A DNA stretch of 35,799 nucleotides, taken from positions 1-35,799 of the forward strand of contig JAYVQB010000084.1 of assembly GCA_043757085.1 (NCBI GenBank), read 5' to 3'. The notes under the pieces are model-generated. The model did no database searches. It was given only the letters and a program-made list of their open reading frames with translations, and was not told the origin of the DNA. The position numbers and the translations under genes are program-made. The DNA is from Verrucomicrobiota bacterium. GTDB lineage: Bacteria; Verrucomicrobiota; Verrucomicrobiia; Verrucomicrobiales; Verrucomicrobiaceae. Each line of letters starts with the position of its first letter. Positions within the stretch are counted from its first letter, which is position 1. Of this stretch, positions 2,289 through 14,285 are shown in pieces.

Positions 2289-3476
2289 ATGAAAACACTC
2301 TACTTCGACTGCATTGCCGGCGCTTCCGGCGACATGATCCTCGGTGCATTGATCGATGCTGGACTGGATGCAGACTGGCTGCGCGGTGAACTCGGCAAAC
2401 TTCCCATCAGCGGCTGGAAGCTCGAAACGAAGCGCGTTGATAAAAATGGATTCACAGCAACAAAAGTGGATGTCATCGTCGGCCCGCAGCCGCACGCCCG
2501 GCCGTTGCCGGAAATCGAGCGTGCCATTCGCGATAGCACGATAGCGGAGCAAATTAAGACGCAGGCATTGCAAGTCGTCCGCATCATCGGCGCGGAAGAG
2601 GCGCGCATTCACGGAATGCCGATTGAAGAAGTGCACCTGCATGAGGTCAGCGGCGAAGATGCAATCATTGATATTGTCGGCAGTTTGCTTGGTGTGGATC
2701 ATTTGGGAATCAAACGCATCATCAGCAGTCCATTGCCGCTGGGTCGCGGATTCATCGCGGGTGCGCACGGCCAGATTCCGCTGCCTGCGCCGGCGACGGT
2801 TGGCATTCTCAAAGGCTTGCCCATCGTGGGATCACCGATCAATGCGGAATTGGTGACACCCACAGGCGCGGCATTGATCAAATTTTTGGCAAGCAGCTTT
2901 GGCCCGCTGCCCGCGATGCGGCTTGATGCCGTCGGCTACGGCGCGGGCACTTGGGATCTGGTCATTCCAAATCTCCTTCGCGTCTTCATCGGAGAGGGCG
3001 ACACCAATGATTTTGATACAGACACTGTCGCTGTGCTTGAGACAAATCTTGATGACCAGTCCGCCGAGCAGCATGGTCATGTGATGGAAAGACTGCTGGA
3101 AGCTGGTGCGCTTGATGTGACATTGACGCCCGCGCAAATGAAAAAAAATCGTCCCGGTGTTACATTGAGCGTCATCGCCAAACCGGAAGATCAGGCCGCG
3201 ATGCGAAATCTTATTTTAACCGAGACCAGTTCACTCGGAGTGAGAGAGCAACACATGCGGCGCAGCGTGCTGCCCAGAGATTGCATCCGCGTGAACACGC
3301 AGTTTGGCGAGACAGTCGTGAAGGTTTCGCATCTCCCCGGTGGTGCACACAAGTATGCGCCGGAGTTTGAGGACTGTCGTGCTCTCGCTCGCAAAGCGGG
3401 CGTGCCGTTGAGAGAAGTTTATGTTGCGGCGGAAGCTGCGGCGCGAGCCGCGCATGAAAGGCCCGGCAGTCATTAG
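2289..3476 (+). CDS. larC: LarC, nickel insertion (CTP-dependent cyclometallase) protein of NPN cofactor biosynthesis (DUF111 family)
   Basis: N-terminus MKTLYFDCIAGASGDMILGALIDAG is the LarC/DUF111 signature. Single unsplit 395-aa ORF. lar gene context. Confidence 0.9.
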   Translation: MKTLYFDCIAGASGDMILGALIDAGLDADWLRGELGKLPISGWKLETKRVDKNGFTATKVDVIVGPQPHARPLPEIERAIRDSTIAEQIKTQALQVVRIIGAEEARIHGMPIEEVHLHEVSGEDAIIDIVGSLLGVDHLGIKRIISSPLPLGRGFIAGAHGQIPLPAPATVGILKGLPIVGSPINAELVTPTGAALIKFLASSFGPLPAMRLDAVGYGAGTWDLVIPNLLRVFIGEGDTNDFDTDTVAVLETNLDDQSAEQHGHVMERLLEAGALDVTLTPAQMKKNRPGVTLSVIAKPEDQAAMRNLILTETSSLGVREQHMRRSVLPRDCIRVNTQFGETVVKVSHLPGGAHKYAPEFEDCRALARKAGVPLREVYVAAEAAARAAHERPGSH

Positions 3477-3485
3477 TCAGACATT

Positions 3486-4289
3486 GTGAGCAGAATAGGC
3501 AACATACTTCGAGGCTTCATCGACCTGCTTAAGTTCAACAACTGGACGCAGTTGTTGGTAAACCGATTGTTGTTTCGGAATACGGGACTGGTCGTTTACC
3601 GGCTTCAGCAAAACGAGATTCTGATCGATCATGCCGGGGACGATCAGAACGGGACCCGCGCATGCCTGGTATCGGACATGTATGCCCGCCACTTTCATCT
3701 TATTCCGAAAGACAAGTTGCTCAATGTGCTAGACCTTGGCGCTAATGGAGGGGGATTCCTTTTAAGCATGCATTGTCACGGATTCAGATTTGGCACGCTG
3801 GCGTGTGTCGAGATGAATCCGGCCACATTTGGGCGATTGCACTTTAACGTTTCGCAAAACATACCTGCGGCGCACGCCCGCCTCATCAACGCCGCCGTCT
3901 GCCAGACGGACGGGAAAATGCTCGTGAATCTTGGCAAGGGTGGAACGAATGAAAGCATTCATCAGGCACAAGCCGCTCATGGCAAAAAAGCGACGGCTAT
4001 TGTCACACGCAGCTTCGATTCCGTCGTCAGTGAATGTTTTGGCGAAGCAAAAATTGACGTATGCAAAATGGACATTGAGGGAGCGGAGTTTGATGTGGTC
4101 TTTTCAGGTGCCGCTGAGTTTTTGAAGAACGTCAGGCTGCTGCTTATAGAAGTTCATCCGCATCCGACTCGGAGCAAGGACGAGTTACTCTCATTGCTGG
4201 CCAGAATGGGTTTTCAAGGACAGATGGGCGATCAGAAAACCAATGGCGGGTGCAGTTTATATGTCCTCAAGAACACTGGGACTGAGTAA
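3486..4289 (+). CDS. FkbM-family SAM-dependent methyltransferase
   Basis: VLDLGANGGGF (SAM-binding glycine motif) and CKMDIEGAEFDV (FkbM-family motif). GTG start 9 nt after the larC stop; the exact start is uncertain. Confidence 0.8.
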   Translation: MSRIGNILRGFIDLLKFNNWTQLLVNRLLFRNTGLVVYRLQQNEILIDHAGDDQNGTRACLVSDMYARHFHLIPKDKLLNVLDLGANGGGFLLSMHCHGFRFGTLACVEMNPATFGRLHFNVSQNIPAAHARLINAAVCQTDGKMLVNLGKGGTNESIHQAQAAHGKKATAIVTRSFDSVVSECFGEAKIDVCKMDIEGAEFDVVFSGAAEFLKNVRLLLIEVHPHPTRSKDELLSLLARMGFQGQMGDQKTNGGCSLYVLKNTGTE

Positions 4290-4332: not shown

Positions 4333-5721
4333 ATGAACAACGCAATGGCCAAAGCGTCGGAAACCGATGCGACATGTTCTGTATTCGTTGGGCTGATGAA
4401 CTATGCTGATTCATCGTTGACGCAAGGCAACGTGGCGCAGGCCATTAATCTGCTCGGTCTCGATGAAAACTTCATCCGTTCAGGCGACAACGTAGTGCTC
4501 AAGCCCAACTGGGTGAAGGAACATGATGAGCGTTACCCCGGTCCGAATCAATGGGAGCACATAGTCACACATCCGAGCGTGATAGAAGGCGTGATCGCAT
4601 GGGTAGCGCCGAAGTTGCAAGGCAAGGGCAGCATCACGGTGTGCGATGCACCACAGACAGACTCGTCGTTCGCCACGTTGCGGAAGTATTGCGACCTGGA
4701 TGCGATGATCGAACGATGCCGCGCGCAGTGGGAAGGTTTGCAAATTGAGCTGCTCGATCTTCGTTCTGAGGAATGGCACACGATTGATGGCGTGACGGTG
4801 GGCAAGACAGAGTTGCCCGGTGATCCGAAAGGCTCTACGCAAGTGAAGCTGAATGAAGACAGCGAGTTCGTCGGCTTCCACGGACTCGGCCAACTCTACG
4901 GCGCGAGCTACAATATGGCCGAGACGCGTGAACATCATCGCGACACGAAACACGAATACATGCTCTGCCGCACACCGATGGATGCGGATGTTCTGATCAA
5001 CATTCCGAAACTTAAGTGTCACAAAAAAGTCGGCCTGACTTGCGCGTTGAAGAACATGGTCGGCATCAATGCCAACAAAAACTGGCTGCCTCATCATACG
5101 GAAGGCACGCCAGATCAAGGTGGCGATCAGTTTCCCGTAGCGACTTTGAAGGCGAAGCTGGAGCACTCATGGATGGGTGGGATCAAGCGCATGCTTTTTG
5201 GTCGCAGCCTCTTAAGTAAGCTGTTCGTGCCAGTGAAAAAGTTGGGCCGTATGGTTTTCGGCAATACGCAAAACATCGTGCGCAGCGGCAACTGGCATGG
5301 CAACGACACCTGCTGGCGCATGGTTGTTGATCTTAACAAATGCCTGTTTTACTTCGATGGCAGCGGCGCTCCACGGACAAAGCCGCTGCGCTACCTGACT
5401 GTTGTGGATGCGATCATCGCGGGTGAAGGCAATGGCCCGATGTCGCCCGACGCAAAACCCTGCGGCATTATCGTTGCCGGGACTAATCCACTCGCAGTGG
5501 ACAGCGTCTGTTGTGCATTGATGGGCTTTGACTGGCGGAAGCTAAAGATGCTCTTTGGGGCATATCGCGCGACGCGGAAACAGGTCGCATCTTTTTCGCA
5601 TGACGAGATTCGTGTAGTGTCGAATGACGCAAGCAAGCAGAAAGCCTTGGGCGAATATCGCAACGATGATGGTCTCGCTTTCAAGCCGCATTTCGGATGG
5701 GTAGGTGCGGTGGAAATGTAG
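4333..5721 (+). CDS. DUF362 (COG2006) domain protein
   Basis: VVLKPNWV (aa 54-61) and INIPKLKCHKKVGLTCALKNMVG (aa 222-244) match my memory of the DUF362 signature. No ferredoxin-type CxxCxxCxxxC motif is present. Confidence 0.75.
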   Translation: MNNAMAKASETDATCSVFVGLMNYADSSLTQGNVAQAINLLGLDENFIRSGDNVVLKPNWVKEHDERYPGPNQWEHIVTHPSVIEGVIAWVAPKLQGKGSITVCDAPQTDSSFATLRKYCDLDAMIERCRAQWEGLQIELLDLRSEEWHTIDGVTVGKTELPGDPKGSTQVKLNEDSEFVGFHGLGQLYGASYNMAETREHHRDTKHEYMLCRTPMDADVLINIPKLKCHKKVGLTCALKNMVGINANKNWLPHHTEGTPDQGGDQFPVATLKAKLEHSWMGGIKRMLFGRSLLSKLFVPVKKLGRMVFGNTQNIVRSGNWHGNDTCWRMVVDLNKCLFYFDGSGAPRTKPLRYLTVVDAIIAGEGNGPMSPDAKPCGIIVAGTNPLAVDSVCCALMGFDWRKLKMLFGAYRATRKQVASFSHDEIRVVSNDASKQKALGEYRNDDGLAFKPHFGWVGAVEM

Positions 5722-5768: not shown

Positions 5769-7169
5769 ATGCCTGTTCACGTGATGTCCCTAGAAGACAC
5801 ATTATACCCTTTGCGTAAGCTCTATGAGTCAGCGCCGCAACCCGTGAAGTCGCTGGCGGGGCGGGCGTATCGCGCGATTCCGGTATCGTTGCGATATGGA
5901 CGGGAATACACACAATTTCAAAATGAAGCGCGCGACGTGGAGTCATGGGATCCGGAGACGATCAGGCGTTATCAAATCAATGCATTGCGTGAATCGTTGA
6001 TCGCCGCGGCGAAAGCACCGTTTTACAAACAGCGATTCACAGCTTGTGGAGCTGATCCGGCAAAGTTTGAATCACTGGAGCAGCTCGGGGATTATCCATT
6101 GCTCACAAAACAGGAGATGATCTTGCAGCGCGAAGAGATGCTGAATCCCGAATACGATGCCACGCAGCGGCTCTATATGACAACAGGTGGTTCGAGCGGC
6201 ATGCCGGTCGGGTTCTATCTGCACAAAGGCGTGAGCCGCCCAAAAGAACAGGCTTATCTTGAGGCGCAGTGGTCGCGACGTGGATTTCGCAGAGGTGACC
6301 GCGTTGCAGTGATTCGCGGAGCTGTCACGTCGAGCAGTGCGAGTGGCGACATCAGCTACTTCGATGCGACACGGAAGTGGCTCATTCTATCATTTTATCA
6401 CCTCACGCTGGAGCGACTGCCGGAGTATGTGGCCGCGCTCAAGCGCTTCCGTCCACAGCATCTGCACATGTATCCCAGTGCCGCATTGATGCTCGCTCGC
6501 GGACTGGAGCAGACGGGATTGAAACTTGAGTTTGTTCTCACATCCGTGTTTTGCGGATCGGAGAAACTCTCGCGCGAGTCGCAGAACTATCTCGAGCAAA
6601 TTTTCGCCGCGCCCGTGTTCCATTGGTATGGCCACAGCGAGCGCGTGGTGCTCGCGGCTCAGGGGCGCACGTCGAATCATCTCTACTTCTGGCCCACGTA
6701 TGGCTTCGTCGAATTCGGCGAACCGGATGCGAGCGGCCACCGCGAGGTCATCGGCACCTCGTTTCACAACCTCGTCATGCCGCTCATCCGCTATCGCACG
6801 GGCGATTATGTAAAACTTGCGCAAAAGCCCGACACTGAATTGCCGATGATCGAAATCGAAGAAATCATTGGTCGGGACTACGAATTTCTCATCAGCTCCA
6901 CGGGCCGCCGCATCTCTCTAACCGCAATCAATATGCACGATGGCATCTTCGAAGGACTTATGGCCGTGCAGTTTTATCAAGAGCGTGAAGGCGAGGTGGA
7001 GTTTCGATATCAAGCCGGACCCCGTTGGCAAGGCTCACATTTGGAGCCGATGCGCGCCGGTTTACTGAAGAAGCTTGGCGATGATTTCTCATTCAAGCTG
7101 CGTGAAGTTAGTGAAATGGAGAAGACATGCACGGGGAAACAACGGTGGCTGGTGAGTAAACTGCAATGA
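5769..7169 (+). CDS. CapK / phenylacetate-CoA ligase / coenzyme F390 synthetase-like adenylate-forming enzyme
   Basis: YMTTGGSSGMPVGFY AMP-binding P-loop-like motif and RYRTGD motif (IRYRTGDYV). Length and N-terminal region are typical of the CapK-like members found in polysaccharide loci. Confidence 0.8.
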   Translation: MPVHVMSLEDTLYPLRKLYESAPQPVKSLAGRAYRAIPVSLRYGREYTQFQNEARDVESWDPETIRRYQINALRESLIAAAKAPFYKQRFTACGADPAKFESLEQLGDYPLLTKQEMILQREEMLNPEYDATQRLYMTTGGSSGMPVGFYLHKGVSRPKEQAYLEAQWSRRGFRRGDRVAVIRGAVTSSSASGDISYFDATRKWLILSFYHLTLERLPEYVAALKRFRPQHLHMYPSAALMLARGLEQTGLKLEFVLTSVFCGSEKLSRESQNYLEQIFAAPVFHWYGHSERVVLAAQGRTSNHLYFWPTYGFVEFGEPDASGHREVIGTSFHNLVMPLIRYRTGDYVKLAQKPDTELPMIEIEEIIGRDYEFLISSTGRRISLTAINMHDGIFEGLMAVQFYQEREGEVEFRYQAGPRWQGSHLEPMRAGLLKKLGDDFSFKLREVSEMEKTCTGKQRWLVSKLQ

Positions 7170-7957
7170 GCGAAGCCAAGATGGAACTTGCCATCAAGCA
7201 GCACGAGAAAGGTGATGTGCTGGGGCTGAAGGTTGATATTACAAATTACAGTGATGCATGTAAACGAATTGAGGCCATCGCAAGGAGCGGCTGCGTAGCG
7301 GCGGTGGCCGCGGCCAATACACATCTCGTTGGCGAGTGCCTGCGCCACAGTGAGTTTGCCGATGTCATGAAGACTTTTGACTTCGTGTTGCCAGACGGGA
7401 TGCCATTGGTGTGGGCCTTGCGGCTGGATGGTCACGAAATAAATGATCGTGTTTATGGGCCTTACTTTATGGAGCACGTCCTTATGAATGCGTCTTCTGG
7501 TTCGAGGCATTACTTTTTCGGCGGCACGCAGGAGTGTCTCGATAAGTTGCAAGACGCGGCTCGCACACTGAATCCGCAAATCCAAATATCGGGAGCGAAG
7601 TCGCCTCCATTTGGATTATGGGATGAAGCAACGGAGACTCGATTGATAGATGACATCAATGCGGCTCAAGCAGACTTCATCTGGGTGGCGCTCGGCGGCG
7701 TGAAACAGGAGACGTGGATCGCGAAGAACCGGCATCGCTTCACGCACGGCGTCTTTCTCGCGGTGGGAGATGCGTTTGTTCTCGTGGCGGGCCAGCGGTC
7801 ATACGCACCTGCGTGGGTGCAGCGCGTGGGTATGACGTGGTTGTTCCGTATGTTGCAGGAGCCGCGGCGGTTGCTATCGCGCTATTTGAGATACAATACG
7901 TTGTTTGCCGTGGCGTTTCTGAAGGAGCGTCTGCGGCTTGCTTATGGTGACAACTAA
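7166..7957 (+). CDS. WecB/TagA/CpsF-family (GT26) glycosyltransferase
   Basis: AANTHLVGE...FDFVLPDGMPLVWALRL...YFFGG...PPFG...DFIWVALGGVKQE matches the GT26 TagA/WecG pattern. 4-nt ATGA overlap with the preceding gene. Confidence 0.85.
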   Translation: MSEAKMELAIKQHEKGDVLGLKVDITNYSDACKRIEAIARSGCVAAVAAANTHLVGECLRHSEFADVMKTFDFVLPDGMPLVWALRLDGHEINDRVYGPYFMEHVLMNASSGSRHYFFGGTQECLDKLQDAARTLNPQIQISGAKSPPFGLWDEATETRLIDDINAAQADFIWVALGGVKQETWIAKNRHRFTHGVFLAVGDAFVLVAGQRSYAPAWVQRVGMTWLFRMLQEPRRLLSRYLRYNTLFAVAFLKERLRLAYGDN

Positions 7958-7966
7958 TCATTGCCG

Positions 7967-10891
7967 ATGAAACAACTCGCCCAATATCAGGACGGTCGCC
8001 TTGAACTGCAAGAAGTGCCGCCGCCTATGCCGCCGCCTGGTGGCATTCTCGTGCGCACAACTTGTTCGGTGATCTCGCCAGGGACGGAGAAGATGAAGGT
8101 GGAGCAGGCGCGGATGTCGTTGTTGCAAAAGGCGAAGGCGAGACCAGACCAAGTGCGCAAGGTGATCGAGACGGCACGGACGCTCGGCTGGAAAGCCGCA
8201 ATGGAGAAAGTTCGTAATCGTCTTGAATCACCGACGCCCCTTGGTTACTCGGCAGCGGGTGTTGTGGTGGAGGTGGATGAGTTGAACACCCGATTCCGTG
8301 TCGGAGATCGCGTGGCCTGCGGTGGTGCAGAGTGTGCTTTTCACGCGGAGATGATCGCGGTGCCAGATTTGCTGGCGGCACCTATTCCCGATGGCGTTGA
8401 GGACTGGCAGGCGGCTTACACGACACTGGCCTCCATCTCAATGGAGGCCGTGCGCCAATCCAGTGTGCAACTCGGTGAACGAGTTCTTGTGATTGGGCAG
8501 GGGCTTGTCGGTTTGCTGGCGACGAATTTACTCAAAGCTGCTGGTGCCCGCGTGATGGCTGCGGATTATGTGCCGGAACGTTTGCATACCGCGCTGGCGA
8601 TGGGCGCGGAGCGTGTGGTGAATCCGGGTCAATCAAAACTTGAAGAGGAAGTTCGAGTATGGACAGATGGTCATGGCGTGGATGCAGTGTTGTTATGCAT
8701 GGGTGGGAAGGGTCGCGAGGCGGCGGACACGGCAATAGCCTGTCTGCGGGATCGCGGCGTCATGGTCATCGTGGGTATTTATGATGCGGAGCTGTCATGG
8801 AAAACGGCTTACATGAAAGACATTCAGGTGCGTTATTCGCGCAGTTACGGCCCGGGCCGTTACGATCCGCAGTATGAGTGGGGTGGACATGATTACCCCA
8901 TCGGCCATGTGCGCTGGACGGAGAACCGGAATTTTGAGGCATGCCTCGCTCTCATGCGCAGCGGGCAGATCAATCTCACGCCTGTGACGACGAGACACGC
9001 GAAGTTCGCAGACGCGATTTCGGTTTATGATGAGTTGATGCGCGAGGGAAATGCGGACATTGGAGTCGTGCTGGAATATTCTGGTAGCTCAGGTGTTTCA
9101 CCTGAGACAAGTCGAGCGGGCATCCTGCCCTCGGAGCAATCGGACAAAATGTCCGATGCACCCGCGACAAGCAAAATGCCCGTCCTACCTAATCGTTTAT
9201 TTATCCCCTACAACTCCCATCTTCACACTGACAAAGCGCGTAGAAACCTGCCGCACTGGGAGCAGGAAGGCGTTACTCACTTCGTCACGTTTCGACAGGC
9301 TGATGCCATTGCGCAATCGCGTTTCATAGAGTGGCGCGAAGAGCGCGAAGCGTGGCTGTCGCGACATCCCAAACCGTGGGATTATGCGACAGAAGAACTT
9401 TATCATCGTCTCTTCGAGGAGCGACAAGAACATTGGTTGGATGAAGGCGCGGGTTCCTGCTTGCTCGCGAATGAGGATGAAGCGCTGCTCGTGAAAAATG
9501 CGATGCATCACTTCGACGGCGAGCGCTACATTCTTGATGAATATGTCATCATGCCGAACCATGTGCATGTGCTGATCAAGCCATTGGGCGGACATGCACT
9601 TTCAGGCATCATGCACTCGTGGAAAAGTTTTACTTCCCGAGAAATCAAGAAGCGTTACGGCCTTGGGGAAGAACCATTTTGGCAGGCGGAACGGTTTGAT
9701 CATGCCATACGCAGTGATGGATCACTTGATGCCAAGCGGAAATACATCTGGCAGAATCCATCGGCAGCAAAGTTGCGCGCAGGATTTGTTTGCGGATGCG
9801 GCATCGGTGTTGTGTTGCAGGACAGTAGCTCAGGTGTTTCACCTGAGACATGTCATAAGGGCATTCTGCCCGTTACGGTCCCGGGCAAAATGCCCCCCCG
9901 ACTCGTCTCAGGTGATACACCTGAGCTACACGTCATTGGCGCGGGCAACTTCGCGCGAACCATGCTGCTGCCACATGTGAAAGGAAAGATTGCACTCGGC
10001 ACCATTGTGAATGCGACTGGGATTAGCGCGAAGCATGTAAAGGAAAAATTTGGATTCGCCGATGCTGAGACAGATTCATCAACGATTTTTTCAAGCAAGG
10101 GTAACGCCGTAATGATCGGCACGCGGCATCACCTTCATGCGCCGCTCGTGCTTGGCGGGCTGGCTGCAAACAAACACGTCTTCGTCGAGAAGCCGCTATG
10201 CCTCACGCGCGATGAACTCACGAAAATCGACACTGAAATGTCGTCCACGCAAGGCAGCGTAATGGTCGGCTTCAACCGACGTTTCGCTCCCGCGACCATC
10301 GCCTTGAAAAAATCATTGGGCGCGATCTCGGGGCCGAAAGCGCTGGCCTATCACGTCTTCGCCGGACCGCTCGCGCCGGATCACTGGTATGCGAATCTCG
10401 AAGAAAGCGGTGGCCGCATTCTCGGCGAAGCATGCCACTTCTTCGACTTCGCGTGCTTCATGCTGGAAGCCAAGCCGGTGCGCATAACTGCGCAGATGAT
10501 CGGCGCGGCACGCGGGCGCAATCAATTTCCTGATTCCATAACCGCGCAAGTTGAGTTCAGCGATGGTTCATCGTTTCAGTTAGTCTATTCCGCCGAGGGC
10601 GATTTTGCGTTTCCAAAAGAAACCTTCCGCATCTTCGCCGCCGGCCTGATTGCAGAGTGCGAGAATTTCCAAAGGCTAAGTTTGCATCAAAATAATAAGA
10701 CATCGGTGAAAAAATTCACTGGCAAAGGCCACGCCGAGGAAATAACCGCATGGCTCGCATTTCTCAACGGCTCCGCCGCGCATCCGCTACCCTATGAGCA
10801 GTCGCGGCAGAGCATGGCCCTCACGTTCGCGGCACTCGACTCCATTCGTGAAGGCCGTAGCATTGAGGTAGCAAGGGCGTCCCGCCCCTGA
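7967..10891 (+). CDS. Bi-domain oxidoreductase (MDR/Zn-alcohol-dehydrogenase-like N-domain + Gfo/Idh/MocA C-domain) carrying an in-frame RAYT transposase domain in the linker
   Basis: One uninterrupted frame (the track starts at TTG 7961; ATG 7967 gives MKQLAQY). The N-domain has VLVIGQGLVGLL (Rossmann). The C-domain has HVIGAGNFARTMLLPH and VFVEKPL (Gfo/Idh/MocA). The central ~280 aa form an HUH Y1 transposase (see the mobile element). The last 8 codons lie in a REP-like repeat. Confidence 0.8.
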   Translation: MKQLAQYQDGRLELQEVPPPMPPPGGILVRTTCSVISPGTEKMKVEQARMSLLQKAKARPDQVRKVIETARTLGWKAAMEKVRNRLESPTPLGYSAAGVVVEVDELNTRFRVGDRVACGGAECAFHAEMIAVPDLLAAPIPDGVEDWQAAYTTLASISMEAVRQSSVQLGERVLVIGQGLVGLLATNLLKAAGARVMAADYVPERLHTALAMGAERVVNPGQSKLEEEVRVWTDGHGVDAVLLCMGGKGREAADTAIACLRDRGVMVIVGIYDAELSWKTAYMKDIQVRYSRSYGPGRYDPQYEWGGHDYPIGHVRWTENRNFEACLALMRSGQINLTPVTTRHAKFADAISVYDELMREGNADIGVVLEYSGSSGVSPETSRAGILPSEQSDKMSDAPATSKMPVLPNRLFIPYNSHLHTDKARRNLPHWEQEGVTHFVTFRQADAIAQSRFIEWREEREAWLSRHPKPWDYATEELYHRLFEERQEHWLDEGAGSCLLANEDEALLVKNAMHHFDGERYILDEYVIMPNHVHVLIKPLGGHALSGIMHSWKSFTSREIKKRYGLGEEPFWQAERFDHAIRSDGSLDAKRKYIWQNPSAAKLRAGFVCGCGIGVVLQDSSSGVSPETCHKGILPVTVPGKMPPRLVSGDTPELHVIGAGNFARTMLLPHVKGKIALGTIVNATGISAKHVKEKFGFADAETDSSTIFSSKGNAVMIGTRHHLHAPLVLGGLAANKHVFVEKPLCLTRDELTKIDTEMSSTQGSVMVGFNRRFAPATIALKKSLGAISGPKALAYHVFAGPLAPDHWYANLEESGGRILGEACHFFDFACFMLEAKPVRITAQMIGAARGRNQFPDSITAQVEFSDGSSFQLVYSAEGDFAFPKETFRIFAAGLIAECENFQRLSLHQNNKTSVKKFTGKGHAEEITAWLAFLNGSAAHPLPYEQSRQSMALTFAALDSIREGRSIEVARASRP
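9084..9108 (+). repeat. REP-like unit: GTAG + 8-bp-stem hairpin (GTAG CTCAGGTG TTT CACCTGAG AC)
   Basis: Perfect 8-bp stem with a 3-nt loop preceded by GTAG. 25/25 identical to 9825-9849. Translated in the host frame as SSGVSPET. Confidence 0.9.
9118..9155 (+). repeat. Mini-hairpins GGGCA-TCC-TGCCC (9118-9130) and CGGACA-AAA-TGTCCG (9141-9155)
   Basis: Perfect 5- and 6-bp stems with 3-nt loops. Same family as 9859-9895, 11059-11073 and 12182-12196. A decayed copy (aGCAAAATGCCC) follows at about 9170-9181. Confidence 0.7.
9825..9849 (+). repeat. REP-like unit, second forward copy
   Basis: 25/25 identical to 9084-9108. Similarity continues imperfectly for about 22 more nt, into a GGGCA-N3-TGCCC hairpin. 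Confidence 0.9.
9859..9895 (+). repeat. Mini-hairpins GGGCA-TTC-TGCCC (9859-9871) and GGGCA-AAA-TGCCC (9883-9895)
   Basis: Two perfect 5-bp stems with 3-nt loops, lying between the forward and inverted REP copies. Confidence 0.75.
9905..9929 (-). repeat. REP-like unit, inverted copy
   Basis: GTCTCAGGTGATACACCTGAGCTAC is the reverse complement of the REP except for the loop (TAT vs TTT). Translated as SGDTPEL. Confidence 0.9.
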
Positions 10892-11088: not shown

Positions 11089-12966
11089 ATGGCTGGCGCA
11101 CTTTGGTATTGGCATCGCTTCCGGGCCATGGGCGTGTCCGAGTTGTGGCATCGGATCATGGAGAAGGTCGGGAAGATCACGGAACCGTTCGCGCTGTCCG
11201 AAATCAGTGATGTGCACATCACACAAAAGGCCGCAAATTATCCGGCTCTGCCGTCGCGTGAGACTGCTCCGGTCTTGTTGAAACAAACGCTCGCGAATGA
11301 CGCGGCAAAGTTGCTCAATGGAAAATGGACGCTGTTTGGCTGGAAGGAAGTGCGGGTGTCCTCGCCGCCCGACTGGCATCGCGATTACATGCGAGGAGTG
11401 AGTGTTCCGAAGATTGGTGGAATTAATCATCGAACTCTGCCCGACGGAGCGGATGTCCGCGCGATCTGGGAGATTAATCGCTGGGCGGAACCTGTGCGGC
11501 TCGCGATGCATGGATGGTTGAACGATGATCCTCCTGCGATTCAGCGTGCTCAACAGTGGCTCGCTGACTGGGTAAAAGTGAACCCGGTGGGTGAAGGCAT
11601 CAACTGGACGAGTGCGCTTGAGGGGGGATTGCGATTGATTAATTTTTGCTGGTTTGATGCATTGGTATCGCAGATGGGGGAAAAGCAAAGTGATCTCGTG
11701 GATTCGATTGTTCCCGCACATGTCTGGTGGGTAAATCGCCATCTGTCATTTGGATCATCGGCAAACAATCATCGACTGGGAGAACTTGCGGGACTGTTGT
11801 TGGCGGTGAAACGCTGGCCTGAAATGGAACAATTTACTGACACGGCAGAGAGCCTTTGGAAACAGATCGCTGATTGCATTATGACTCAATTTGCCGAAGA
11901 CGGAGGCAATCGCGAACAGGCACTGCATTATCATTTGTTTGCCTACGAGATAGCACTTCATGCATGTAATGCGATGAAGGTGACAGAAGGACCTGTCATA
12001 GATCGCTTGCAACGCGCGGCAGATTTTTTTGTGCGTATGTCACATCCACAGGAATCTTGGGACTACGGCGATAATGATGATGCGCAGTTAGTCCCACTGA
12101 CGATGCATCGCGAGAAAGCCGCTGCGGAGTGGGGCGCGTGGATGCATGGTTGTGGCACAGGCTTGCAGCCTGTGTGTCCAACGGGCATTCTGCCCGATCA
12201 GGAGGGCGTTGGATTAAATTACTGGCTTCGCGGTGAGCACGGGCAGTATGCCCATGCTATACACAAGTCACAGACCTGTGCCACAGACTGGTGGATTGCG
12301 CCGCAATCTGGTATGGCTGTGATCGAGCGCGATGGCTGGAAACTGCGGGTCGATGCATCACCACTTGGTTTCGGCAAACTGGCCGCGCATGGTCACTGTG
12401 ACGCGATGCATGTTTCCATTTGGGATGGCGAAAACGCGCTGGTAATTGATCCGGGAACAGGCGGCTACTTCGGAGCGGAGGAACTTCGCACAGAGCTTGC
12501 TTCATGGAACGCTCACAATGGACCGCAGCCAGTCGAGGGTTTTAAAACGCCGCGACGGGCAGGGACGTTTTTGTGGGCATGCCCGCATTCGACACCTGAG
12601 ATTGATTGTGTAGGTGATGAAATACACGTCCGCTTTAGCAGCGAGGAGCATTGTTTTTCTAGAACAGTCCGCTTTATAGATGGAGTGAATCACGTGGCGG
12701 TATGGGACTTGGAATCAAACAAGAAAAAATTTAAAGTTCGCTGGCAAATTGCACCGGATCTAATCGTGCGCTCGATCGATTCAAGAATTGCATCGTTTGA
12801 GATTTCCAGAGGACGAAACATCTGGAGCATGTCAGTCATGAGTGAAGAAAAATTAGTTAATGTTACAACTGGAAGAACATCACGATTCTTCGGTGAAGAT
12901 GAACCTGGTTCTGTGATTGAGGTCGTTGCCCAGGGTTGGCTGCGAACGGAGTGGCATCGCCTCTAA
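11089..12966 (+). CDS. Heparinase II/III-family (alginate-lyase-fold) protein
   Basis: SSANNHRLGELAGLL (toroid-domain N-H motif) and AAHGHCDAMHVSIWDGENALVIDPGTGGY (Hepar_II_III C-terminal motif). This family is commonly paired with bi-domain oxidoreductases in glycan loci. Confidence 0.8.
   Translation: MAGALWYWHRFRAMGVSELWHRIMEKVGKITEPFALSEISDVHITQKAANYPALPSRETAPVLLKQTLANDAAKLLNGKWTLFGWKEVRVSSPPDWHRDYMRGVSVPKIGGINHRTLPDGADVRAIWEINRWAEPVRLAMHGWLNDDPPAIQRAQQWLADWVKVNPVGEGINWTSALEGGLRLINFCWFDALVSQMGEKQSDLVDSIVPAHVWWVNRHLSFGSSANNHRLGELAGLLLAVKRWPEMEQFTDTAESLWKQIADCIMTQFAEDGGNREQALHYHLFAYEIALHACNAMKVTEGPVIDRLQRAADFFVRMSHPQESWDYGDNDDAQLVPLTMHREKAAAEWGAWMHGCGTGLQPVCPTGILPDQEGVGLNYWLRGEHGQYAHAIHKSQTCATDWWIAPQSGMAVIERDGWKLRVDASPLGFGKLAAHGHCDAMHVSIWDGENALVIDPGTGGYFGAEELRTELASWNAHNGPQPVEGFKTPRRAGTFLWACPHSTPEIDCVGDEIHVRFSSEEHCFSRTVRFIDGVNHVAVWDLESNKKKFKVRWQIAPDLIVRSIDSRIASFEISRGRNIWSMSVMSEEKLVNVTTGRTSRFFGEDEPGSVIEVVAQGWLRTEWHRL
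12156..12196 (+). repeat. Double hairpin inside the heparinase-like CDS: CACAGGC-ttgca-GCCTGTG (12156-12174) + CGGGCA-TTC-TGCCCG (12182-12196)
   Basis: Two perfect stems (7 and 6 bp). GGGCATTCTGCCCG is 14/14 identical to 9859-9872 next to the RAYT. Translated in frame as GTGLQPVCPTGILPDQ. Confidence 0.75.
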
Positions 12967-12983
12967 ACTAAGAGTTGGTCAAA

Positions 12984-14285
12984 ATGAACATCTCCATTTT
13001 CGGTCTCGGATATGTCGGCGCAGTAACGGCGGGCTGTTTAGCAGAGCTTGGTCATCGCATTATCGGCGTGGATGTGCAGCTATTAAAGGTGGATGCGTTG
13101 AATGCAGGGGTGTCGCCTATAATTGAGCCGGGGCTGAATGAGTTATTACAGAGGGTAAGGCATGAAGATCGGTTGCGAGCGACGACTGATGCAGTCGAGG
13201 CTGTGAATGAATCAGAAGTGAGCATCATCTGCGTGGGCACGCCTTCGTTGGAGTCGGGACAATTGAATCTGGATCATGTTCGCAAGGTTTCGCGGCAGAT
13301 TGCGGAGGCGGTTATAAAGAAGGGTAACCCGCATGTGGTGATCTTCCGCAGCACGATGCTGCCCGGCAGCACGCGGGCGATGGCAGATGAATATTTTTCT
13401 GAACCGCGAATCACGACGATGTTGCGGATTTATCACAGTCCTGAGTTCTTGCGTGAAGGCACGGCGGTGCAGGATTTCCGTGAACCATCGCTGGCAGTGC
13501 TTGGAACGCACAATGGAAATAGCCCGCAAAGCGACGAGGCGTCGCTTCTGCTTGGAGGGAATCCTGCAGTGCTGACATGGGAGGGTGCAGAGATGATCAA
13601 ATACTCCTGCAATTATTTCCACGCGCTCAAGGTCGGCTTTGCCAACGAGATTGGCCGTCTGTGCAAACATCTCGGCGAGGACGGCGCGAGAGTGATGGAT
13701 GTGGTATGCGAGGATACCAAGCTGAATATCTCGCGCCAATACTTGCGACCGGGTAATCCGTTTGGTGGTTCGTGTTTGCCGAAGGATGTGAGTGCGCTGA
13801 AGTCGTTTGCGCGCGTGGAGGGCATCAGTTTGCCGCTCCTTGAAAATACCTTGGACACCAATCAGGCCCATCTCGACCAACTCATCAAACTTATCATCAG
13901 CAAAGATAAGCGGCGCATCGGTCTGCTGGGGCTTGCTTTCAAAGCAGATACTGACGACTTGCGAGGCAGTCCAATGGTGGCCGTGGCGGAGAGATTGCTC
14001 GGGCTTGGCTATGAACTTCACATCTATGATCCGCAGCTAAATATCGCACGCCTGATTGGCGCGAATGCGAATGAAATTCAACGACGCATGCCGCATCTGG
14101 CATCATTATTGAGGTCGAGCGTGCATGAAGTAATTGACAAATGTGATGTGATCGTGGCCGCGCAGAAGTGCGCAAGTCACGGTGAAATGCAGGCCTCGGC
14201 AAGGTCAGGGCAATGTGTCATTGATGTGAACGGTTGGTCCGAGCTAATGGATTTGCCGTGGAAATACGAAGGGATTTGTTGGTAA
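12984..14285 (+). CDS. algD: GDP-mannose 6-dehydrogenase (AlgD-like nucleotide-sugar dehydrogenase)
   Basis: MNISIFGLGYVGAVTAGCLAELGHRIIGVDV..., ...PEFLREGTA..., ...GGSCLPKDV..., ...LGLAFKADTDDLRGSP... and the C-terminal ...EGICW follow P. aeruginosa AlgD closely, as I remember it. ATG 12984 is preferred over the track's TTG 12975. Confidence 0.8.
   Translation: MNISIFGLGYVGAVTAGCLAELGHRIIGVDVQLLKVDALNAGVSPIIEPGLNELLQRVRHEDRLRATTDAVEAVNESEVSIICVGTPSLESGQLNLDHVRKVSRQIAEAVIKKGNPHVVIFRSTMLPGSTRAMADEYFSEPRITTMLRIYHSPEFLREGTAVQDFREPSLAVLGTHNGNSPQSDEASLLLGGNPAVLTWEGAEMIKYSCNYFHALKVGFANEIGRLCKHLGEDGARVMDVVCEDTKLNISRQYLRPGNPFGGSCLPKDVSALKSFARVEGISLPLLENTLDTNQAHLDQLIKLIISKDKRRIGLLGLAFKADTDDLRGSPMVAVAERLLGLGYELHIYDPQLNIARLIGANANEIQRRMPHLASLLRSSVHEVIDKCDVIVAAQKCASHGEMQASARSGQCVIDVNGWSELMDLPWKYEGICW

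Follow-up and report, generated by a model that had tools for sequence, protein, structure and literature searches.

Which protein uses nickel-pincer nucleotide (NPN) as its cofactor in a genome that can make the cofactor but has no lactate racemase LarA? That NPN synthesis without LarA occurs in many genomes has been known since 2014, and to our knowledge the non-LarA users of NPN on record number only two, an aldo-keto reductase and an ornithine cyclodeaminase, each of them described very recently. The question arises in a 35,799-nucleotide stretch of DNA from a Verrucomicrobiota bacterium (family Verrucomicrobiaceae; GenBank assembly GCA_043757085.1, contig JAYVQB010000084.1, positions 1 to 35,799, forward strand), referred to here as the window, in which larE, larB and larC precede a gene for a protein of DUF362, a very large uncharacterized family. 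A Pfam profile scan of the whole window found no encoded LarA (PF09861). We propose, with moderate confidence, that the DUF362 protein is a candidate NPN-dependent enzyme of the LarA superfamily; it is homologous to LarA, has counterparts of key LarA residues and lies in conserved synteny with the lar genes, and NPN binding, the chemistry and the substrate are predictions built on these observations. The gene and the relevant features of its product are as follows.

4333-5721, + strand: long-form DUF362 protein of 462 amino acids (aa), candidate NPN enzyme with a LarA-superfamily fold (PF04015; AlphaFold2 model and Foldseek)
4501-4509, + strand: K57-P58-N59 motif after the strand at aa 53-58 (131-132 of 134 family representatives), in the presumed slot of LarA S71-D72-H73, which is inferred and not aligned
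4954-5097, + strand: core segment aa 208-255, homologous to LarA 152-200 (hhalign; LarA hidden Markov model, HMM)
5020-5022, + strand: codon of H230, counterpart of the LarA catalytic His174, at the end of a beta-strand (conservation, alignment, DSSP)
5050-5052, + strand: codon of K240, counterpart of LarA Lys184 (the NPN thioamide tether), at the start of a helix (conservation, alignment, DSSP)
5092-5094, + strand: codon of H254, likeliest counterpart of the nickel ligand His200, in a loop past the short helix 249-251 (133 of 134 representatives)

The open reading frame (ORF) matches the Pfam DUF362 profile PF04015 in two stretches (109.6 bits, cutoff 24; E = 2.7e-31). As the first-pass annotation of this DNA had read it, the protein contains the motif PKLKC-H230-KKVGLTCAL-K240-NMVGINANKNWLP-H254-H255, with codons beginning at 5020, 5050, 5092 and 5095, and the H-x9-K-x13-H pattern occurs only once in the 462 aa. 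The LarA residue numbers used for comparison (H108, H174, K184 and H200) match the sequence of PDB entry 5HUQ.

Conservation was counted across 134 family representatives with 34-66% identity. H230 is conserved in 134/134, and K240 and H254 are each conserved in 133; a second set of 119 further sequences shows no variation in these three columns, and the KPN motif is near-invariant among the representatives. The initial annotation had pointed to a His-His pair, and only its first member holds across the family, as H255 is present in just 47 of the 134 representatives and is replaced by Tyr in 50 and by Phe in 25. At E ≤ 1e-3, a search of 1.84 billion cluster representatives returned 3,855 clusters, and 772 remained at the stricter E ≤ 1e-30. 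The closest relatives (66-84% identity) are from Verrucomicrobia, full-length relatives with 34-50% identity are found in Planctomycetota, Acidobacteriota, Zixibacteria and other phyla, and all 82 relatives scanned match PF04015. Using tblastn against 72,556 plasmids, we found no match to the whole protein; the core peptide gave three marginal matches, one of them a useful classical DUF362 protein.

The NCBIfam model Npun_F2552_fam, which bears a Nostoc punctiforme gene name, matches aa 205-256 (window positions 4945-5100), the H-K-H core, with 68 bits. The classical DUF362 protein of Parabacteroides distasonis, which is 310 aa long and carries a twin-arginine translocation (Tat) signal, keeps KPN and H-x9-K-x12-H. 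Because this classical form and the Npun_F2552 model share the core, the H-x9-K...H motif appears to be general in DUF362. Directly downstream of the P. distasonis gene (NZ_OY725750.1, L165:5491-6423) lies a gene for a 4Fe-4S dicluster protein, and the two point to a cofactor-loaded exported enzyme pair.

DUF362 and DUF2088/LarA_N belong to one Pfam clan, CL0471 (PMC11770544), which is why DUF362 was chosen as the outgroup of a LarA tree in a 2024 Journal of Biological Chemistry paper (PMC11770544). Based on our searches, the Pfam DUF362 HMM matches residues 82-245 of Lactobacillus plantarum LarA (E = 1.3e-4) and matches 31 of 40 genuine LarA proteins, the best of them at E = 1e-5 and above the gathering score. 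When a profile of 82 DUF362 sequences was aligned to a profile of 19 LarA sequences, hhalign returned a single match, aa 208-255 on LarA 152-200, in which H230 falls on H174, K240 falls on K184, and, with a gap of one residue in the loop, H255 pairs with H200. The best local alignment of the LarA HMM (LarA 152-193) has the same register in nearly all of 87 family members. The profile comparison that had been suggested for this protein therefore aligns H230 with H174 and K240 with K184, whereas H254 and H255 are placed only in the loop that holds His200.

Searches of the PDB with phmmer and hmmsearch (the single protein and the 82-sequence profile) returned no LarA, only spurious matches to the MntA antitoxin, GbpA and a virion protein, and plain profile-sequence search was therefore judged too weak in that direction. 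Runs of hhalign outside aa 208-255 (greedy, N-terminal-only and C-terminal-only) were dropped for residue mapping because they were non-significant and conflicted with the order of secondary-structure elements.

AlphaFold2, given a 119-sequence alignment, predicted the structure of the DUF362 protein with a mean predicted local distance difference test score of 94.7. Using this model, the Foldseek comparison with LarA structures that had been called for placed LarA, LarA-like NPN enzymes or the LarA-related entry 4NAR in all of the top 16 PDB positions (E = 1.2e-5 to 4e-3, Foldseek probability 0.96-1.0), mostly over ~375-415 alignment columns; the matches to 9Q3J and 9Q3K were shorter, at 212-260 columns. 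Comparison of the DSSP strings of the AlphaFold2 models of the DUF362 protein and LarA identified collinear elements: a strand ending in His (LarA H174, DUF362 H230), a G-x-S/T (LarA G178 and S180, DUF362 G234 and T236), a Lys that opens a helix (LarA K184, DUF362 K240), and a His in the loop past the next helix (LarA H200, DUF362 H254). Because H254 is invariant, we take it, and not H255, as the probable counterpart of the nickel ligand His200. Taken with the profile alignment, the Pfam cross-matches and the common clan, the Foldseek result shows that the DUF362 protein is a true distant homologue of LarA, a divergent two-domain member of the superfamily; of the two options first offered, LarA-related or LarA-analogous, the former holds.

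The entry 4NAR (Thermotoga maritima Q9WYS3, labelled "putative uronate isomerase") is related in sequence to LarA (E = 4e-5 to one LarA protein). It ranked fourth in Foldseek and had the lowest root-mean-square deviation of the near-full-length matches, 8.4 Å over 375 columns.

The genes that surround the DUF362 gene in the window are listed below.

255-1097, + strand: larE, NPN sulfur insertase (NCBIfam TIGR00268, 311 bits, E = 6.4e-93)
1094-1861, + strand: larB, nicotinic acid adenine dinucleotide carboxylase/hydrolase of NPN biosynthesis (NCBIfam NF033503, 268 bits, E = 6.2e-80; Pfam AIRC)
2289-3476, + strand: larC, CTP-dependent nickel insertase with LarC1 and LarC2 fused (PF01969, 458 bits, E = 3e-137; NCBIfam LarC1, LarC2)
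3486-4289, + strand: FkbM-family methyltransferase, between larC and the DUF362 gene (PF05050, TIGR01444)
5769-7169, + strand: CapK/PaaK-like adenylate-forming ligase (NCBIfam/Pfam AMP-binding; CapK_C in relatives)
7166-7957, + strand: WecG/TagA-family glycosyltransferase (PF03808, E = 2e-51)
7961-10891, + strand: ADH_zinc_N + GFO/IDH/MocA bi-domain oxidoreductase, with an in-frame REP/RAYT (repetitive extragenic palindrome/REP-associated tyrosine transposase) element (Pfam)
11089-12966, + strand: heparinase II/III-like protein (Pfam; synteny in related loci)
12975-14285, + strand: UDP-sugar 6-dehydrogenase (Pfam; synteny in related loci)

The genes from larE through the FkbM gene to the DUF362 gene are all on the + strand, mostly with minor gaps or overlaps between them, and the DUF362 gene is, as previously noted, two genes downstream of larC on the same strand. 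The slot between larC and the DUF362 gene varies in related loci, where it is empty or holds a sulfatase or another gene. Further downstream, the exopolysaccharide operon continues with genes for an acyltransferase, a family 4 (GT4) glycosyltransferase and a Wzy-like polymerase. The window LarE has a PP-loop SGGVDS and a CxxC...C motif (C97, C100, C177), as defined for LarE in PMC9283937; as read from the sequence, these motifs match the catalytic, [4Fe-4S]-dependent Thermotoga LarE and not the sacrificial single-Cys L. plantarum type. The larB-larC gap of 428 bp is much longer than the few to ~150 bp found in most related loci, and it contains a hydrophobic ORF of 117 aa at 1883-2236. This ORF has no Pfam or NCBIfam match and no tblastn match in related loci; it may encode a small membrane protein specific to this lineage or else be spurious.

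We surveyed the genomic context of 83 DUF362-family loci (80 genome loci and three context look-ups) with flanks of ~10 kb. In 7 of them, larE, larB or larC lies within 10 kb. A metagenome scan for LarC added four close relatives, three of which have the DUF362 gene directly behind larC; the other 76 metagenome LarC matches were distant, lay on short contigs and were uninformative. Together with the window, the lar-linked set therefore comprises 11 loci (7 and 3 further loci plus the window itself). These follow a common gene order, larE-larB-larC-(0 or 1 variable gene)-DUF362-CapK-(WecG)-ADH/GFO-heparinase-like-UDP-sugar 6-dehydrogenase, even as their LarC proteins diverge from 95% to 48% identity. 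No LarA was found in any of the 83 loci. One metagenome contig of 3.9 kb (L088:1088-3001) carries larC, an AsnB-like glutamine amidotransferase gene and the ADH/GFO oxidoreductase gene, with no DUF362 or CapK gene between them; on a contig this short, a DUF362 gene may still lie elsewhere in the same cluster.

The commonest neighbor of the DUF362 gene is a gene for a CapK-like ligase, present in 55 of the 83 loci across phyla and mostly immediately downstream. Loci with the DUF362-CapK pair (e.g., L003, L004 and L069-L083) are exopolysaccharide clusters of the exosortase (EpsH/EpsI) type. In other members (P0140, P0144, P0164, P0240, P0258 and P0259), DUF362 is fused to GT4, family 2 glycosyltransferase (GT2), PGA_cap, AsnB-like amidotransferase or TupA-like ATP-grasp domains, and these fusion partners tie the subfamily to glycan assembly and carboxylate activation. 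The CapK pairing and the fusions suggest a role for DUF362 in glycan decoration via carboxylate activation.

In the mechanism that we propose, LarB, LarE (of the [4Fe-4S] type) and LarC, which would be co-transcribed, make NPN, and the cofactor would be installed in the DUF362 protein through a thioamide tether at K240, and H254 would supply the fourth ligand of the nickel. H230 would act as the general base on a substrate hydroxyl, with hydride transfer to C4 of the pyridinium ring. A non-symmetric reaction is proposed because just one LarA-type catalytic His is conserved, so that the enzyme would epimerize in one direction only or catalyze another "hidden-redox" reaction, and would not be a symmetric racemase. 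Its substrate may be a hydroxy acid or a sugar-acid unit, which the enzyme would prepare or modify; the CapK-like ligase would then adenylate this unit, and attachment would take place during exosortase-linked exopolysaccharide synthesis.

Several known systems bear comparison with this proposal. LarA itself (PF09861 + PF21113; 5HUQ, 6C1W, 2YJG) has the same two-domain fold over ~400 Foldseek-aligned columns, carries His174, Lys184 and His200 on the secondary-structure elements that hold H230, K240 and the probable His200 counterpart H254, and is likewise encoded near larB, larC and larE. The DUF362 protein differs in being only ~10-15% identical, in having large insertions at ~aa 146-205 and 260-325, and in belonging to an exopolysaccharide biosynthesis operon, whereas LarA acts in hydroxy-acid metabolism. 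LarA_Sp and LarA_Bw (9Q3J, 9Q2U, 9Q3K; PMC12611868), which are among the Foldseek matches of the DUF362 model, share the LarA fold and, like the DUF362 protein, have one catalytic His only; carbohydrate-related substrates are suspected for them. They keep His108 and have Asn in place of His174, and the DUF362 protein is their mirror image, with H230 kept and no His108. NPN use has been shown for these bona fide DUF2088 members and is predicted for DUF362. Classical short DUF362 proteins (~310 aa, e.g., P. distasonis WP_005857469) have PF04015, KPN, H-x9-K-x12/13-H and D...G-x-G-P in common with the window protein; they are shorter and in many cases exported by the Tat system or encoded as fusions to, or neighbors of, 4Fe-4S proteins, whereas the window type is a cytoplasmic subfamily of 450-510 aa with insertions, tied to CapK-like ligases and glycan-enzyme fusions. 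The NPN-dependent aldo-keto reductase NphT (PMC13524815) is likewise a non-LarA protein, identified through its position beside larBCE in larA-less clusters; its cofactor is tethered by a Lys and ligated by a His, and its substrates are sugars. NphT has an unrelated triosephosphate isomerase-barrel fold and experimentally established NPN binding, whereas the DUF362 protein has a LarA-clan fold and predicted NPN use.

The alternative that survives best is that the DUF362 protein, though a homologue within the LarA superfamily, works without NPN: its conserved H/K/H triad would be an inherited site for catalysis or ligand binding that serves a metal, a different cofactor or neither, and the lar genes would have arrived beside it once, in one Verrucomicrobiales lineage, to provide NPN for something else. 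We regard this as possible, if less than probable. Several of our observations weigh on its side and against NPN use. NPN-binding LarA proteins conserve the Lys tether, the nickel-binding His, Asp72 (ribose), Arg75/Lys (phosphate) and the catalytic His108 (PMC12611868). From this list, the Lys tether has a predicted counterpart in K240, which aligns to K184 and is conserved in 133/134 representatives. By secondary-structure order, the slot of LarA SDHTRP (Asp72/Arg75) is taken by the invariant KPN and a 20-residue loop; among the 134 representatives there is no conserved Asp/Arg pair for Asp72/Arg75, in a region where the sequence alignment is not significant, and no conserved counterpart of His108, the position (Q108/T109) being variable. 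LarA racemases have two catalytic His residues, and in the DUF362 protein H230 (= His174) stands alone. The hhalign match has weak significance (E = 0.027, reported probability ~2%, 48 columns only), and the Foldseek TM-scores are low (0.23-0.37). The DUF362 protein has no PF09861 (Lar_N) match even at E ≤ 10, and only 2 of 82 DUF362 relatives match that profile (E ~0.05). Because its fold is LarA-like, yet it has no Lar_N match and differs in NPN-site residues, we place it in the LarA superfamily at clan level but outside the LarA family.

Genomic context also supplies evidence for this alternative. All 11 lar-linked loci fall in one Verrucomicrobiales clade of the DUF362 tree, so the linkage represents one preserved evolutionary event, not 11. 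Where the upstream flank measured 9 kb or more, ~39 loci have no lar gene within 10 kb, and the loci that lack lar genes within ~10 kb flanks include those of the Limisphaerales sister clades and of every other phylum. The broadly conserved partner of DUF362 is the CapK-like ligase and not lar (55 versus 7 of the 83 loci), and the classical forms of DUF362 have 4Fe-4S partner proteins and can be Tat substrates. What argues against a protein without NPN is that the invariant residues are precisely those that correspond to the NPN-tether Lys and, probably, to the nickel-ligand His of LarA, that the lar genes remain immediately upstream down to 48% LarC identity, and that neither LarA nor any other known user of NPN is encoded in these loci.

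By analogy with NphT, the NPN consumer might instead be the ADH_zinc_N + GFO/IDH/MocA oxidoreductase (7961-10891) or some other NAD-type enzyme that the cluster encodes, a reading that we consider improbable. The bi-domain oxidoreductase is found in every lar-linked locus with sufficient downstream flank, it follows larC and the AsnB-like gene on contig L088, and enzymes with NAD(P)-type folds beside larBCE can be NPN enzymes (PMC13524815). Against it, canonical glycine motifs for dinucleotide binding are retained in both domains (GxGxxG, aa 179; GxGxxA, aa 660), a LarA-like tether motif is absent, the enzyme also turns up in many loci without lar genes, and its gene is 3-4 genes from larC, while the DUF362 gene abuts larC.

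In the window, this oxidoreductase is a single ORF of 976 aa because a RAYT (Y1_Tnp)-like gene is inserted in frame in the inter-domain linker. The insertion spans ~9084-9929 and is bordered by 47-nt direct repeats (9084-9130 and 9825-9871) as well as by palindromic REP-like arms, and its flanks duplicate the linker peptide SSGVSPET..GILP..KM. Syntenic orthologues align only to aa 3-409 and 612-970, and the gene called at locus L001 encodes 725 aa.

A chance resemblance in the His-x9-Lys-x13-His spacing, for which the first-pass annotation had allowed, has next to no probability: although 2.8% of 20,000 shuffles of the protein reproduced the exact spacing and 17.7% a looser one of x11-17, so that spacing by itself is not significant, the triad is invariant family-wide, the LarA register is consistent in ~87 sequences, Pfam cross-matches link the families, and LarA and its relatives head the Foldseek PDB list. 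The significance of the motif therefore comes from its invariance across the family and the homologous LarA alignment, not from spacing.

The reading of the window protein as an NPN-dependent enzyme could be extended to DUF362 as a whole. In the literature, we found no functional study of DUF362 and no proposal or test of NPN use by it, apart from the clan statement; the homology of DUF362 and LarA is already known (Pfam; PMC11770544). It is unlikely, in our estimate, that the entire family, with its classical Tat-exported, Fe-S-associated and cyanobacterial Npun_F2552 forms, is a second, very large branch of NPN enzymes. About 15% of genomes carry larBCE without larA (PMC11796402), and most larBCE-only genomes are still regarded as unexplained (PMC11796402; PMC13524815). 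Because larBCE has been reported in cyanobacteria, where LarA is absent (PMC11796402), the Npun_F2552 family offers a lead on which cyanobacterial protein uses NPN. The hypothesis is directly testable, as a published Escherichia coli system for larBCE co-expression exists (PMC11796402).

If DUF362 binds NPN, a major family would gain an annotation, the problem of orphan lar genes would be partly explained, and nickel-pincer chemistry would reach beyond hydroxy-acid racemization into glycan biosynthesis. Should this hold for the whole family, it would account for much of the ~15% of genomes with larBCE and no larA, cyanobacteria included, and the long DUF362 subfamily would carry NPN chemistry into exopolysaccharide biosynthesis.

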